From an uncultured Phycisphaerales bacterium (lineage in GTDB: Bacteria > Planctomycetota > Phycisphaerae > Tepidisphaerales > Tepidisphaeraceae): DNA of 64,000 nt. Both the position numbers and the translations under genes were made by a program. The notes below the pieces were generated by a model that had not been told where the DNA came from, ran no database searches, and saw only the letters and a program-made list of their open reading frames with translations. The stretch spans positions 2,656,001 through 2,720,000 of the forward strand of contig CAVWVQ010000003.1 of NCBI GenBank assembly GCA_963758525.1, given 5' to 3'. Within the stretch, counting starts at the first letter, position 1. Each line of letters begins with the position of its first letter. Below, one piece after another: positions 22,996 to 53,691 of the stretch.

Positions 22996-24042
22996 TCACT
23001 GATCCGGCGTATTCATTCTGATCTTGTCGTCGTCCCAGTTGAGGTAATAGTGCTCGATGTACGCGATGCCCGAGTTCCAGGTCGGCCCGCCGTTGGCTGC
23101 TATATTCGGCGTTGCGGTTGTTGACGTCCACGGCTGCCATGTCCATCGGTCGTGATTGCAGTTGGTATAGTAGCCGCCCCAGGTGGTGTGATCGGAGGTC
23201 GCGGGAGAGCCAAGCGGAATATTCCCGTACCCTCCCCGATTACCCTGGGAAAAGCTCTTCTCCAGATTATCGCTGGAATCGGAGAGGATCTGGGCGGACC
23301 CGTCGAAGAACGCGCAGGAGAGTCCCTTGTTATGACCGACTTGCAACAGCGCGTCCTTTCTCCAGAAACTGCCAGTCCAGGCTTCCCAGAAGATGTCCAT
23401 CACCATCGGAGTATCCGGAGCGGCCCGGGTGATGTTGTGAGCCCAGGCCCAGTTGCACTTTCGCTGAGCTCCCGAACCTATGTTCGCTGCCACCGAGGGA
23501 GCATAAGCTGTATCGGCAATGGCGACGATGTAGCCCCCGTTCAGGTCGCCGTTAAACGCGCCACCAGGCCATGCGCCATTCCACAAGCCTGGATTCCACG
23601 TCGTTCCATCGCTGATGCTGGTCAACTGCGGAGCCGATTGCCAGTCGAAGCTCCACAGATCATCAGATGCCCGGCCCGGGCAATAGCAAAGATGCACATC
23701 GGTCAAATAGTTGCGGTAGAGCAGCGTTCCAGCTCCAGTCGGCCAGGTCTTGATGGCCCCGTTCACATAAATCTTTTGGGCAGGGCTGCAGCGCAGGAAG
23801 AACGTGTACCCGACCGGCCATCCCGTTCCATCGACGATGTTCGCGGGGAGTGAGCCCTTATTCTCGTTGGCATACATCAGATTGGCGGCCGCGATCTGCC
23901 GGACATTGCTGAGACACTGAATCTGTCTCGCTGCCTGCCGCGCCTTGCTGAGCGCGGGCAACAGGAGACTGACCAGTATCGCGATAATGCCAATCACGAC
24001 GAGCAACTCAACAAGAGTCAAACCGTTTCTTGGTTTCCGCAT
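22996..24042 (-). CDS. Type IV prepilin-like protein (N-terminal cleavage/methylation, H-X9-DG motif)
   Basis: [51 protein letters not shown]. Confidence 0.9.
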
Positions 24043-48294: not shown

Positions 48295-48819
48295 ATGAAT
48301 GAATCAATCGAGGATGTTGCCAGGAAATGGGCTGCGGCACAGCCGCTGGTTGCTTCGTTTATTTCCTTGATTGTATCGGACTTCCATAACGCACAAGACG
48401 TGCTGCAGGAGGTCGCGGCGGCGGTGTTGTCTCACGACCCATCCCGCAGCGTCCCCGAGTCGTTTAACGCGTGGGTCATTGGGATCGCCCGTCATAAGGC
48501 GTTGGATTTTCATCGCCGTCAGACCCGCGACAAACTGGTCTTTGACTCAGAGGCGCTGTCGATCCTCGCCGAGGTGCATCAGGAGGTTCGCCAGGACCAG
48601 GGGCCGCGCCGCGAGGCCATGGAGCATTGTCTCAAGCGGCTGGCTTCCAAGGCGCGCCGGCTCATCGAACTGCGCTACCAGGATGATATGAAGCCGGGCG
48701 CGATCGCCGGGGCGATGGGGAGTAACGTCAGCGCGGTGAAGGTCGCGCTCCACCGCGTGCGGGCGGCGCTGCGGGTCTGTATTGAGGCGCGGCTCAGTTC
48801 TGGAATCGAGCTGACATGA
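48295..48819 (+). CDS. ECF sigma-70 factor (cassette B)
   Basis: Close paralog of 27946; NAQDVLQEV, FNAWVIGIAR. Confidence 0.92.
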   Translation: MNESIEDVARKWAAAQPLVASFISLIVSDFHNAQDVLQEVAAAVLSHDPSRSVPESFNAWVIGIARHKALDFHRRQTRDKLVFDSEALSILAEVHQEVRQDQGPRREAMEHCLKRLASKARRLIELRYQDDMKPGAIAGAMGSNVSAVKVALHRVRAALRVCIEARLSSGIELT

Positions 48820-50411
48820 AGGACCCGATGGCACTTCTCGACGAACACTTCGACGGCATCCTCGATGAAGCCGGGGCGGCAGAGTTGTCGGCATGGGTGA
48901 AGCAGAACCGTCGCAACGCCCGCCTTCTGGTCGATGCCGCGCGGTTGCACCAGGATCTTCGCGAACTGTTCCTTGGCCGCCGGCTTTTGGAAGAGGCGGC
49001 ATCATCAGGCACTTCGCTCCATGACGCGATGATCCTCCCCGCTATATCGCTTCCAGCCAATGATGAAGCGGAGGCGCAGACCCCTCCGGTGGCAACGGTA
49101 CCGACTCGCATTGAACCATCGACGTCGCGTTTGCGTCATCGGTACTGGAAAATCGCCGCTGCGATCGCGATCCCGATTCTGGCCGGCATCGTACTCTGGT
49201 CAGTCCTTCGCCCCGCCAAACCCGGCGGAGCTCTGGTCGCCAGCGCCTCGGCCGTTTGGGACAATGCAGTTCAGCCACCACACGACGGGCAGCCCCTTCC
49301 TGCTGGACCGCTGCAACTGGCCAGCGGGCTGGCCGAGATACGCCTTAATAACGGCGTTTCACTCGTCGTTGAAGGCCCGGCGCATTTCCAGCTTCAATCT
49401 CAGAACAGCGTCGCGCTTGAACTGGGCAAAATTACGGTAAGCGTACCTGCCACTGCCCACGGATTTACCATTCAGACTCCCTCCTCGCGCACCGTCGATC
49501 TGGGGACAGAGTTCGGCGTCATCGTGGACGACGCCGGAAATACCGAAACGCATGTCATCCGCGGCACGGTTGAAGTAACGCCCACCGCCGGTGGCGCAGC
49601 GCTGCTCTTCTCGGCAGACCACGCGGCACGCGTCGATGTCGGCGCCACTTCGGCGCAAACGATTGAGTGCCACGCGGGGAATTTTGTGCAGGACGTCCCG
49701 GCAATCGACCTTGTGGACGTCATCGCCGGCGGAGACGGGACGCAGGGACGGTCAAATAGCGGGATCGATATGGCCACTGGCAAAGCCTTGCCGGTGAAAG
49801 TCCCGGCAGGCATGAACCCCGGGCCCGAACCAACGATTCGCGGAGACGGAAAGTTCCACCCCTGCCCCTCCCTGCCATTGGGTGTCTTCATCCCGCATGG
49901 TGGGCCGACGCCTGACACAGTCGACGCTGCCGGCCACCAGTATATTTTCCCGCCCACGAGCAACCTTGCGTATCAAAACATTTGGCCCGGATCCGCCCAG
50001 CATCTGCTGGGTGGCGATTCGCCTACCACTGGTATGACCAAAGAGAATGGCTACCCGGCGCCGGGTCACCGATTACTCGAACTTCATGCCAATAAAGGAA
50101 TCACGTTCGATCTCAATGCACTGCGCACCGCTCATCCCGACCGGCCATTCTCGCATCTCGTCGCCCGTTGCGTGAATATGAATGCATATGCCGAACCAGT
50201 GATCGGTGCAATAGTCTCCGATCGATCGGAGCTTTGGATATTTGTGGATGGCGATCTCCGTGCACACAAGCTGATTCATCGCATGGACCCGCCATTCGAT
50301 GTTGACGTTCCCATCGAACCCGCTTCGCATTTTTTGACATTGGTGGTGAGCGACGGAGGAGATGGCTTCGACTGGGACGTGGTGTCGTTGGGTGATCCAA
50401 GGTTAAAATGA
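48816..50411 (+). CDS. FecR-domain anti-sigma factor with an NPCBM-like domain (cassette B)
   Basis: ATGA overlap with sigma. Close paralog of 26334. Confidence 0.85.
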   Translation: MKDPMALLDEHFDGILDEAGAAELSAWVKQNRRNARLLVDAARLHQDLRELFLGRRLLEEAASSGTSLHDAMILPAISLPANDEAEAQTPPVATVPTRIEPSTSRLRHRYWKIAAAIAIPILAGIVLWSVLRPAKPGGALVASASAVWDNAVQPPHDGQPLPAGPLQLASGLAEIRLNNGVSLVVEGPAHFQLQSQNSVALELGKITVSVPATAHGFTIQTPSSRTVDLGTEFGVIVDDAGNTETHVIRGTVEVTPTAGGAALLFSADHAARVDVGATSAQTIECHAGNFVQDVPAIDLVDVIAGGDGTQGRSNSGIDMATGKALPVKVPAGMNPGPEPTIRGDGKFHPCPSLPLGVFIPHGGPTPDTVDAAGHQYIFPPTSNLAYQNIWPGSAQHLLGGDSPTTGMTKENGYPAPGHRLLELHANKGITFDLNALRTAHPDRPFSHLVARCVNMNAYAEPVIGAIVSDRSELWIFVDGDLRAHKLIHRMDPPFDVDVPIEPASHFLTLVVSDGGDGFDWDVVSLGDPRLK

Positions 50412-50424
50412 ATTAGGTGCATAG

Positions 50425-53181
50425 ATGCGGAAACGAGCACGCGATTTTACTCTTGTTGAGCCGCAGCGCTGCCTCAGGCGAAGATCCAAATCAGCTTTCA
50501 TCTCTGAAGGGGCTTCTTGTCAACGGCGAGACGGCTTGATTGCTAAGTTCCGTTCATTGCTCTCTCCGATCAGCTTCGCGCACTCCCCCTGCGCCCTTGG
50601 CGGGGAGGCTAACGAGGCGGGGGTTTGGGGGCAGAGCCCCCAAGTCTTTGTCGTTCTCGGCGGAACCGTGGCTGCCATCCGGCACCGCGCGGGCGGCGCG
50701 ATGCGGCGGTTGAATTCATCTCTATGCGGTCATCGGACGGACGGGTCGCAATGCCAGGCCGTGTGTTCCGAGCCGAATAAAACCTTGTTCGCGTCAACCG
50801 GGCCGAATTCACACTGTCGCAGTCACCAGCAGAACCCGAATCCGACGCCAGTGGCGTCCGATTCGAACCAATGCCTGCCGGGCCGAATGAAGCCGAGTCG
50901 CGGTCTCCAGATTGACGAGACATCGTCTTGCATGGCTGCAAGAACTATTGATGTCATAAGCGTTCCGCCGAACCGCTGGTCATGCCAGGATCATCTCCTC
51001 TTCTTGTTTGACAGGTTGTTGCTTAGCAGATTGTTGCTTGAGCCGGGCCTTGTTGGCCGCCCGCTCGTGTCCGGTGGGCTCCTGGCCCTGGTAGGCCGTC
51101 CCGTCGCGGACCATGGCAAAGAGGACACGCAGCAGGCGTCTTCCCATCGCGACGTTCGCCTTGGGCTTGACCATGTGTCCGATCAGCCGCTGGCGGATCG
51201 CCTCCTGCTTCGCGTCGGAGCGGCAGAGGGTGACCGCGGCCTTGCACAACGCCCAGCGCAGCGTGGCGCTGCCCGCCTTGGTGATGTGACCCGACTGGGT
51301 CCGGCCGGCCGACTCCTGGTTGTCGGGAGTCAATCCCGCCCAGAACTCGAGGGTGTCGGCGTTGGGAAAACGGGAGAACTCGCCGATCTCCGCGGCGATG
51401 ATGCACGCCCAGATCTCGTCGATTCCCGGCACGCTCTTGAGAATCGCAATCAGGGAGGCGAATCGCCGGTCGCGGTTGGCAAAAATGATTTTCCTGCGCA
51501 GGCATTCCCGCTGTCGCTCGATCAGGCAGACCAGGTCCAGGAAGTTGCCGAAGGCTTCGCGCTGCACGTCCTTGAGCAGATCGCCATTGGCCAGCAGCCA
51601 TTTCTGGGCGCCGGCGCCGTCCAGCTTGGGACCGCGAATGTTGGCGGCCAGGAGCATCGACCGCATGGCGTGCTTGGCGCGGGTGAGGGTGCGGGACAAA
51701 TGCCGCCAGTGCCGGCCGAGCTTGCGGAGCTGCATCACTGCTTCGGGGGCGATCCATCCCAGCGGGCACTCCCCGCGGGAGAGGCGCTGGGCGATGTCGG
51801 CCGCGTCCTTGCGATCGGTCTTGCGCCGCTTACCCCGGAGGTTGGACAACTGCGTCGCGTCGGCGATCTCGATCTTGTCCACGCAGGAGCGGAAGCGGTC
51901 GATGAACCACTCGACAAAGCCGACGGCTTCCACTGCCAGGCGGCTGGGACGCGGCAACGCCAGCATCCATTTTTCGATGCGGTCAACGCACTTGGTGTCA
52001 CAGGTCAGCGCGGCGATCTGCGTCCCCGAAGCATCGACAGCACACAGCGAGACGGTACACTTATGCAAATCCACGCCGACGAACGCGGCGTACGAAACAG
52101 GCACATCAGACATAACAAACTCCGTGTTAGGGACCAAGGGAACTTAGAACACTCCCGGAAGCGTAACGGCTTCCGCAGGCCCCTTCACGGTTTTACGCTG
52201 GTGGAACTCCTCGTTGTTATTGGAATCATCGCTGTCTTGATTGCATTATTGCTTCCGTCCCTCCAAAAAGCGCGACAGCAGGCCAGGTACGTCAGATGGC
52301 AGGCTTTCAGCCGTGATTTGTCGATGGATCCCAGCGTCATCGTCCATTACGACATGCAGAATGATGCGGGAACCTCCTTCCTGACGAATATGGCCATGGG
52401 TAATGCCCGAGACCCATCAATGGTCCCGTCCAATCTCGACGCGCAGATTCTCGACTGGTCGCAGAGCCCCTTTCCGCTGCTCTCGGTCAACTATCCCGGG
52501 CAGGTGGCCGCACTATGGTCGAATAGCGGGCGATTCCCGGGAAAGCCGGCCCTGTCGTTCAACCCAACGCTCACACCCAACGCCATGGCCTACATCGGAC
52601 AGCGGAACAATGGAATCGGTCGGATCGCCAACATGCTGCGCAAAACGCAGGCCTACACGCTTTTGTACTGGGTCTATGTGCCCCGTCCGGCTGTTGACAA
52701 CCAGCTCTTTGTGTATTGGGCTGGCAAGGGCAATTCTGCACAGATCGTGGTCACCACGGATATGGCCTGGGGCGGGAACGTCAACGCCTCGCAGGGGAGC
52801 GGTTTTGGCGGTTCCCCTACCATGACCTCATTTTCCACCGGAACAGGAGCGATTCCATTCACCTATGGGCAAGACTCGCGGTGGAATCTGTTTGCCTTCA
52901 CCAGCGATCGCAGATCTGGAGTTGCCAAGCTCTATCAGAACGGCGTGCTGGTCGCCTACCAGCAGTCGGGCAACCAGTTGATCGTCGGCCCTGACGTGGC
53001 GTATCCAACCGGCAGCGATCCTGGCGCATTGGTCTTTGGAAATTGGCCGAACCACGGTGAGAACAATATCGTCTGCGACGAATTTGGACTTTTCGACTCT
53101 GATCTTTCTCCCAACGACCCATTGATACTGGGCACCATTTCGCCACGCTTTTTCCCGATGTACACTGTGGGCGTGAATTAA
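50425..53181 (+). CDS. Type IV prepilin-like protein with a C-terminal LamG-like domain, carrying an in-frame IS1111-type insertion (host parts 50425-50500 and 52196-53181)
   Basis: Reconstructed native N-terminus [48 protein letters not shown]. LamG-like [24 protein letters not shown]. Confidence 0.85.
50514..50979 (-). ncRNA. Predicted seekRNA/bridge-RNA region of the IS1111-type element (exact ends unknown)
   Basis: Noncoding region 3' of the transposase with hairpins (about 50626-50641, 50813-50823, 50838-50864, 50926-50943) and segments matching the target and donor junctions. Confidence 0.6.
50980..52113 (-). CDS. IS110-family DEDD transposase/recombinase
   Basis: VGVDLHK, AVEAVG and KTDRKDA (DEDD); [30 protein letters not shown]. 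Confidence 0.95.
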
Positions 53182-53211
53182 CCTGACCGGCCCCCAAACC
53201 GATGCGTGTCC

Positions 53212-53691
53212 ATGGCGCTTAGAGAATTCTTCAGTCAAAACCCCAAGGCGGTCGCCACAGGGACCGTCCTGGTGCTGGCAGCTTGCCTTGTTGTGATCTT
53301 TTCCGAGTTGAACGGCGGCGGAAAACCCAGGTTGCCGATCATGCCTGATCAGGCATTTTACACCACTGACGACGGCGCTACCCTCTTCGCCGATTCCCTC
53401 TCCAAAGTTTCCCCAATCGACCATAATGGGCATCAGGCTGTGCGGGCCCACGTCTACAGCTGCGATGGAGGGCGCCATCGATGGGTGCAGTATCTGGAAA
53501 AGATGACCGAGAAAGAGAAAACAATCGCTGAATCTCCCGAGCAATCCCGCAGCCATTCGTTCGATCCTCTGATCAAAAAGCCGGGGGATTCAAAATGGGT
53601 CCACCAGAGCGATCTCACTGCGCCGGCGATGATGATCCCAAAGTGCCCCGACGGGATGGGCTCAGGCGTGCCGCAACCCGTCGCCCCCTGA
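53212..53691 (+). CDS. Uncharacterised 'DDG' prepilin-partner protein (paralog 3)
   Basis: TM helix; FYTTDDGATLF, PIDHNGHQAV, VYSC, YLEK, KKPG..WV, CP. Confidence 0.8.
   Translation: MALREFFSQNPKAVATGTVLVLAACLVVIFSELNGGGKPRLPIMPDQAFYTTDDGATLFADSLSKVSPIDHNGHQAVRAHVYSCDGGRHRWVQYLEKMTEKEKTIAESPEQSRSHSFDPLIKKPGDSKWVHQSDLTAPAMMIPKCPDGMGSGVPQPVAP

Follow-up and report, generated by a model that had tools for sequence, protein, structure and literature searches.

How can an insertion sequence (IS) settle in the very codons at which a pilin precursor is cut, and still leave a gene from which a normal pilin could be made? The question is raised by a stretch of 64,000 nucleotides (the window, with position 1 as its first letter) from an uncultured Phycisphaerales bacterium (assembly GCA_963758525.1, contig CAVWVQ010000003.1, positions 2,656,001 to 2,720,000), where an IS1111-group element of the IS110 family interrupts a pilin-like gene at its prepilin-peptidase site. 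Our answer, to which we give a probability of roughly 0.72, is that IS1111-group elements at prepilin cleavage codons act as a disposable leader read from their antisense strand, with the cut of the host peptidase leaving the normal pilin. An initial annotation had already interpreted the insertion as harmless through host processing, which is supported by the work described here, while it is from sequence that we infer that the long precursor is translated, inserted in the membrane and cleaved. The features involved are the following (the arrow in motifs marks the cleavage position or its equivalent).

50425–53181, + strand: read-through open reading frame (ORF) of 918 amino acids, made of a 589-residue leader and a 329-residue pilin.
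50425–50499, + strand: start codon and prepilin leader of the host gene, followed at the left junction by its Phe codon.
50500–52194, no strand assigned: IS1111-group IS110 element of 1695 bp, with 565 stop-free codons on the + strand.
50980–52113, − strand: IS110-family DEDD recombinase/transposase of 377 amino acids (PF01548 and PF02371).
52063–52065, + strand: in-frame ATG opposite the GVDLH His codon, not conserved as a start.
52132–52194, + strand: element-coded basic tail, including the short-end inverted repeat at 52179–52187.
52189–52191 and 52192–52194, + strand: Gly(−1) codon and Phe(+1) codon, both supplied by the element.
52192–53181, + strand: predicted mature pilin-like protein of 329 amino acids, with an N-methylation motif and a LamG-like domain.

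The ORF at 50425–53181 is a single frame that crosses the entire insert, whose end runs on in continuous frame into the TLVELLVV of the pilin. In this regard, the in-frame, stop-free insert of 1695 bp and 565 codons described in the initial annotation was recovered in the pilin frame, together with the prepilin-peptidase site that the element end was said to rebuild behind a basic leader; the start of the element, formerly placed at 50425, had to be moved, since the element covers ~50500–52194 and 50425–50499 is host leader, whose sequence varies among the four copies of the element in this genome. These limits come from a comparison of junctions and are good to a few bases on either side. The right junction reads TTT in 126 of 129 flanks and the left one varies as host Phe codons do (C in 57, T in 40), which indicates that Gly and Phe codons alike come with the element. 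In the pilin part, PF07963 scored over its cut-off and PF13385 below it, and no Pfam family matched the 589-residue leader part. Both transposase domains, the N-terminal DEDD RuvC-like PF01548 and the C-terminal PF02371, were over cut-off, and among 34 sequences residues D15, E62, D100 and S268 were invariant and D103 nearly so, the acidic ones and S268 being presumably catalytic.

The four copies in the genome differ by 0–5 substitutions, and all of them are in frame, stop-free, in the same orientation and placed at a prepilin G/A↓F-T-L site. Two occupy neighbouring pseudopilin genes, one of them GspH-like, in an operon with T2SSE and T2SSF genes. A six-frame motif count gave 80 pilin-like motifs in the genome, which also carries a PilD-type peptidase gene with both domains.

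A wider view was obtained from relatives in genomes and metagenomes, mostly Planctomycetota where named, comprising 160 loci, of which 94 carried the two end motifs (counting the four copies of this genome), at 61–100% protein identity. These relatives share ancestry, and clustering at 90%, 80% and 75% identity gave 73, 25 and 14 clusters, respectively. The length was a multiple of three in 87 of the 94 complete elements, and 81 of the 94 were also free of stops, over 50 different lengths between 1570 and 1899 bp; by cluster, the same two figures were 66 and 61 of 73, 20 and 19 of 25, and 10 and 9 of 14. The non-coding end held 37 stops in 12,556 codons of the pilin frame versus 408 and 299 in the two remaining frames of the strand, and it was open in 65 of the 73 clusters versus 1.1 expected (a few elements have an overrun transposase end, and the non-coding segment counted is shorter for them). 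The frame is kept over 32 different lengths of the non-coding end, the stretch from the end to the donor guide (101–446 nt) falls in one residue class modulo 3 in 66 of 72 cases, and 122 of 126 short ends likewise share one class. For the copy in the window, the 483-bp non-coding end is open in only 0.25% of base shuffles, and the counts across relatives exclude chance.

In the transposase gene, CTA, TTA and TCA, the three codons that read as antisense stops, are avoided and appear 8 times in total in 73 genes (0.1–0.7% of their families), whereas the other A-ending codons GTA, ACA, GCA and CCA are used at 3–4%, and the antisense frame is open in 125 of 135 transposases. As a control, the in-register antisense frame was open over 377 codons in 202 of 1077 host ORFs (19%), so that the open frame of any single copy is weak evidence; among control IS110 genes, mostly from the same bacterial family, it was open in 3 of 28, and open across the gene and both flanks in 0 of 22. 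Because of the shared ancestry of the relatives, P-values from shuffles overstate the case, and it is the size of the contrast and the controls that carry the argument. Of the occupied pilins, 68 of 73 were intact (100 codons or more), and 74 of 78 had an upstream in-frame start. A plasmid collection contained distant IS110 elements only, all below 60% identity, the best among the matches listed being 28–31%.

What the element places in front of the pilin was also examined. The basic tail carries a net charge of +5.1 compared with +1.45 in shuffles and +2.0 and +0.5 in the other frames, and in 60 of 61 tails the charge is at least +3. At the −1 position the codon is for Gly or Ala in 140 of 140 cases (GGT in 137, GCT in 2, GGC in 1). 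The comparison of relatives proposed in the initial annotation, for length modulo 3, an open antisense frame and a G/A↓F end, thus came out in its favour in the three respects. Passages of PMC10191384 describe the prepilin leader as variable in length, ending in Gly or Ala, held in the cytoplasm by the positive-inside rule and the sole part to be removed. A class III signal has 20–25 hydrophobic residues after the leader, often with Glu at +5. In the sequences at hand we find the Gly/Ala leader end, the hydrophobic stretch of PF07963 and a hydrophilic, positively charged leader (net +5.1 near the site, and a maximum hydropathy of 1.33 in the insert of the window copy compared with ~3.1 for the pilin helix). 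Mismatch rates were flat over codon positions (0.154, 0.160 and 0.174), as expected for a throwaway peptide, and the idea of a conserved antisense protein was rejected on the same figures, there being no conservation at the peptide level. The ATG at 52063, proposed before as an alternative start giving a 43-residue leader, is indeed in frame, but that leader is not supported as a conserved feature, since the His codon is CAT in 15 of 60 relatives versus 109 of 375 other His codons (Fisher p=0.64). This ATG is a by-product of the transposase, being the reverse complement of the His codon in its GVDLH motif.

Several natural experiments bear on the same question. A second family, ~33% identical, shares the short end and the target, and it has 13 complete copies with an HG↓F end. 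Of these, 8 combine the right frame with an open one (one of them with a single codon of flank), and 1 keeps the frame but has one late stop with ATGs behind it. In other lineages the guides have been reprogrammed to non-pilin sites (L018, L152 and L158 in the first family; L217 and L218 in the second, together with the partial copies L230 and L232), and there we find stops or loss of frame, with the second-family ones aimed at a RRRW-S/F-F motif and ending in S↓F. The target of L217, L218, L230 and L232 is an N-terminal motif of planctomycete genes, MTAPRRRW-S/F-F-R/Q-L/F…, and one genome has three copies of this lineage. In a quick tree, which gives only a rough placement and came with long-branch warnings, the retargeted elements branch among or beside open ones, which suggests repeated loss of the frame. 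A different outcome is seen at eight loci without full read-through (L024, L033, L057, L078, L096, L097, L099 and L150), where a purine-rich site, an ATG and a basic leader of 16–19 residues lie in frame with PxHG↓F; judging from these motifs, a minority of lineages would have a second way to keep the pilin expressed, with a ribosome-binding site and ATG of their own. Finally, at L123 the two families are stacked, and a single frame, no shorter than 1148 codons, leads from a host-type start through both elements into FTLVELLVV. Stacks of the two families at one site were seen at L123, L116, L097 and L160, and are explained by the insertion regenerating its own target.

The element itself contributes further features, given here with the guides predicted for its RNA.

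50505–50513, + strand: sub-terminal inverted repeat of the long end (TGAAGGGGC), pairing with 52179–52187 and conserved in relatives.
50518–50523, − strand: TTGACA −35 box (93 of 94 elements have TTGAC in this position).
50690–50960, − strand: predicted core of a bridge/seek RNA (approximate limits), with a target-binding loop and a donor stem-loop.
50715–50723, − strand: predicted donor guide matching the long end (AGAGAUGAA).
50778–50784, − strand: predicted donor guide matching the short end (GGUUUUA).
50808–50816, − strand: predicted target guide for the Phe-Thr-Leu codons (CAGUGUGAA).
50888–50896, − strand: predicted target guide of the leader side, reading the Gly/Ala codon and the Phe codon.

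The inverted repeats are sub-terminal and perfect over 9 bp (at 50505 and 52179), within the 7–17 bp reported for the IS1111 group in parts of PMC11208160. There is ~480 bp of non-coding DNA downstream of the transposase gene versus ~80 bp upstream. No target duplication was found, target and orientation are fixed (in the four copies, and in 123 of 131 right flanks, which match F[TS][LM][VIL]E), and the two ends share only TT(Y)A. On a circle junction, the −35 box and the other end would make a TTGACA-17-TAAAAC promoter; no circle joint was seen in four DNA runs with fragments of close relatives, which carries no weight either way. Sub-terminal repeats, a long non-coding end and a circle-junction promoter are given for the IS1111 group in the parts of PMC11208160 and PMC11187229 consulted, which also cover known members such as ISEc11, ISKpn4 and ISPa11, with their DEDD recombinase, their top-strand guide ahead of the bottom-strand one (an order predicted here as well, with guides for both target strands), their fixed target and orientation and their natural guide reprogramming. 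By every feature tested, the sequence is that of an ordinary member of this group.

With respect to the RNA, the ~480-bp end called non-coding in the initial annotation has, as claimed, no stop in the pilin frame, but it contains the −35 box and the predicted bridge RNA. An RNAalifold model of 14 non-coding ends gave 65 pairs, 33 of them changed on both sides; the single-sequence fold of the window RNA was no better than shuffles (z 0.14), so that only the alignment fold is informative, and an Rfam scan of 50300–52400 returned one match, with an E of 0.19, far below its cut-off. The leader-side guide covaries with the left flank at the Gly/Ala position (39 of 56 versus 25.3 shuffled) and at two further positions (26 versus 15.5 and 40 versus 29.2), and the Phe-Thr-Leu guide is altered to fit the non-pilin targets in the retargeted lineages. 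The long-end donor guide is present in 91 of 94 elements and shifts with the end sequence in L143, L144, L154 and L157. A second donor guide near 50664 was dropped, its site not being conserved. Altogether, a predicted bridge RNA with guides covarying with the pilin site likely steers the insertion, according to this model.

These observations can be arranged in a stepwise mechanism. The sequences of the insertion sites show that the element selects, in one orientation, the prepilin-peptidase codons of pilin-like genes, with predicted guides, backed by covariation, matching target and donor. Frame, stop avoidance, basic tail and Gly/Ala(−1) are kept across the family, and these traits are lost once the target is no longer a prepilin site. 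Ribosomes from the host start would then read through the element, the pilin helix would anchor in the membrane with the ~590-residue leader in the cytoplasm, and PilD would cut after the element-coded Gly, with the normal mature pilin remaining. More broadly, an old and widespread clade of RNA-guided IS has probably turned into insertions excised by a host protease, with the guide aimed at the cleavage site of dozens of genes, transposase and RNA recoded, and tandem stacks of more than 1100 residues.

A number of points weigh against this reading. Known prepilin leaders are far shorter than the 589 residues expected here, which departs from the short N-terminal leader of class III signals, and in the literature searched we found no paper on a prepilin peptidase acting on a leader of 500–600 residues. 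The donor site, the inverted repeat and the −10 box predicted for the junction all share sequence with the Gly-Phe codons, so that conservation of these codons has causes at the DNA level too and is not a proof by itself. Moreover, 39 of 61 insert peptides hold a 19-residue window with a mean hydropathy of at least 1.6 (7 of them reach 2.0), and such moderately hydrophobic stretches could disturb membrane targeting. Multiples of three are not over-represented among the single alignment gaps of the non-coding end (48 of 183), only net length being constrained in this way. In the first family, 13 of the 94 elements are not fully open, some of them of retargeted or restart type; in the second family this applies to 5 of 13 copies, 4 of them with shifts of 1–2 bases. 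Some of these elements lie at pilin sites, for instance with indels of 1–2 bases (L046, L106, L219 and L221, through either decay or assembly error) or with 1–2 stops (L032, L036, L038 and L053). The pilin behind the second copy of this genome (C3:3873200-3873330) meets a stop after 36 codons, with the typical continuation in another frame, from either decay or an assembly error. Likewise, guide covariation at the third positions of Thr and Leu among pilin targets was not significant (18 of 54 and 22 of 54), which G:T wobble could explain.

Other explanations of the open frame have to be weighed against the disposable leader. It could mainly keep ribosomes over the 1.7-kb insert, averting transcription termination and lost translational coupling to genes further down the operon, with the fused pilin poorly processed or degraded. 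The adjacent position of two occupied genes in a pilB/pilC-type operon with overlapping stop and start codons speaks for this, as does the lack of constraint on the peptide itself, and there is a terminator-like hairpin on the pilin strand (50619–50641), though at chance level. Such a protection against polarity does not predict the basic tail or a −1 codon restricted to Gly and Ala, nor that the retargeted lineage of the second family has given up Gly along with the frame, nor lineages that swapped read-through for an ATG and a short basic PxHG↓F leader. Since the tail, the change to Ser upon retargeting and the restart lineages favour processing over mere polarity protection, we regard the latter as unlikely to be the main cause, and it is compatible with the disposable leader as a second benefit. 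It is also rather improbable that the pilin is generally made from an internal start, be it the ATG or GTG opposite the GVDLH His codon (with its ~43-residue leader) or another one, and that read-through is secondary. Restart is evident in L057, L078, L096, L097, L099, L150, L024 and L033, the His codon yields ATG or GTG automatically, and one weak promoter-like match lies at 52034–52061; however, an in-frame ATG occurs within the last 60 codons in only 18 of 61 open elements, CAT is not enriched, and the open, in-frame non-coding end 1.2 kb upstream is left unexplained. The restart lineages have mostly lost the upstream open frame, so that read-through and restart behave as alternatives.

Phase variation by precise excision, as with IS492, offers another model, in which the insertion inactivates the pilin, function returns only when the element leaves and the open frame is incidental. 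The junction promoter motif conserved here agrees with it, and IS110/IS1111 elements do leave as circles according to parts of PMC11187229 and PMC13626964. Excision makes no demand on the reading frame. Strong constraint nevertheless acts on frame, stop avoidance and charge, which are lost on retargeting, and this makes the model very unlikely. As for a GC-rich shadow ORF kept by chance and shared ancestry, the relatives do share ancestry and the antisense frame open in 19% of host ORFs gives the idea some ground; nevertheless, with a frame maintained over 32 lengths of the non-coding end, no fully open case among the 22 IS110 controls and the agreement of a family only 33% identical, it is barely credible.

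Unlike known IS1111 elements, the one described here targets a protein-processing site of a large host gene family, stays translatable along the whole of its antisense strand and contributes Gly-Phe together with a basic tail; the searched passages of PMC11208160 and PMC11187229 are silent on any in-frame or antisense reading. IStrons, which combine a group I intron and an IS, likewise sit inside genes and are harmless through removal after transcription, as described in parts of PMC4227781, but here the removal would occur at the protein level by a host protease, no group I intron was matched in Rfam, and a spliced element would need no open frame. The Rickettsia palindromic elements (RPEs) and in-frame miniature inverted-repeat transposable elements, treated in parts of PMC10969869, are also mobile DNA tolerated in frame within host ORFs; the RPEs are ~150 bp long, non-autonomous, found in unrelated genes and stay in the protein. 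The element described here is in contrast autonomous, 1.4–1.9 kb long and site-specific, and would be cut off. Inteins are inserted in frame at a conserved site, translated with the host protein and removed from it, and the present element shares these traits, although it has no splicing domain (no Pfam match) or peptide conservation, its own gene lies on the opposite strand, the N-terminal host part would be discarded instead of re-ligated and the cutter would be a host enzyme. Piv/MooV of Moraxella is an IS110-family recombinase that inverts a host segment to switch the pilin type; both cases join this family to type IV pilin genes, the present one by insertion of mobile DNA at the codons of the cleavage site. 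The initial annotation knew of no such harmlessness strategy for IS110/IS1111 elements, and we found no description of it in the literature searched: term searches of PMC11208160, PMC11187229 and PMC13604230, and of part of the supplements of the first two, were negative, subscription journals and bioRxiv supplements lying outside this coverage. Novelty in this sense means not found and is not proven; the effect resembles that of IStrons, inteins and RPEs, and the mechanism matches none of them.

Some side observations concern the surroundings of these elements. Two pilin genes of the genome without a nearby transposase (C3:687715 and C3:4773150) have leaders ending in the short end of the element and look like in-frame relics of deleted copies, and similar PLHG/LLHG leaders are found upstream of several related elements. 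The host leader at 50425–50499 holds a degenerate copy of the motif (ARD↓FTLVE) 17 codons ahead of the real site, which may be an old duplication or an insertion scar. A GC-rich hairpin module at 50605–50644 is present in only some related elements, and unrelated contigs match the module alone; it may be a small mobile repeat lodged in this non-coding region. The occupied gene lies in a cluster at 48295–53691 made up of an extracytoplasmic function (ECF) sigma factor, a FecR-like anti-sigma factor, a pilin-like gene and a small ‘TTDDG’ membrane protein; a small gene like the latter also precedes the relic pilin at C3:687715 of the same genome (G000). A pilin paralog near position 24000 of the window (− strand) has a plain leader.

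If this reading is true, it would reveal a third route, beside RNA and protein splicing, for a mobile element to live within a gene, with its removal outsourced to a host enzyme: the prepilin peptidase would do for the element what splicing does for introns and inteins. It would also explain how a coding target present in many copies, such as the pilin-like motifs of this genome, is open to exploitation by an IS; in Planctopirus, parts of PMC10632474 report a large family of DUF1559 paralogs, two of them essential. Moreover, these elements would offer a clean example from nature, complete with matched controls, of an antisense reading frame under selection, a direct prediction on the leader length tolerated by prepilin peptidase, and an addition to the bridge recombinases, with predicted guides that read a degenerate codon motif. 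For genome annotation they would stand as a warning, because pilins occupied in this way would be missed or labelled as pseudogenes.

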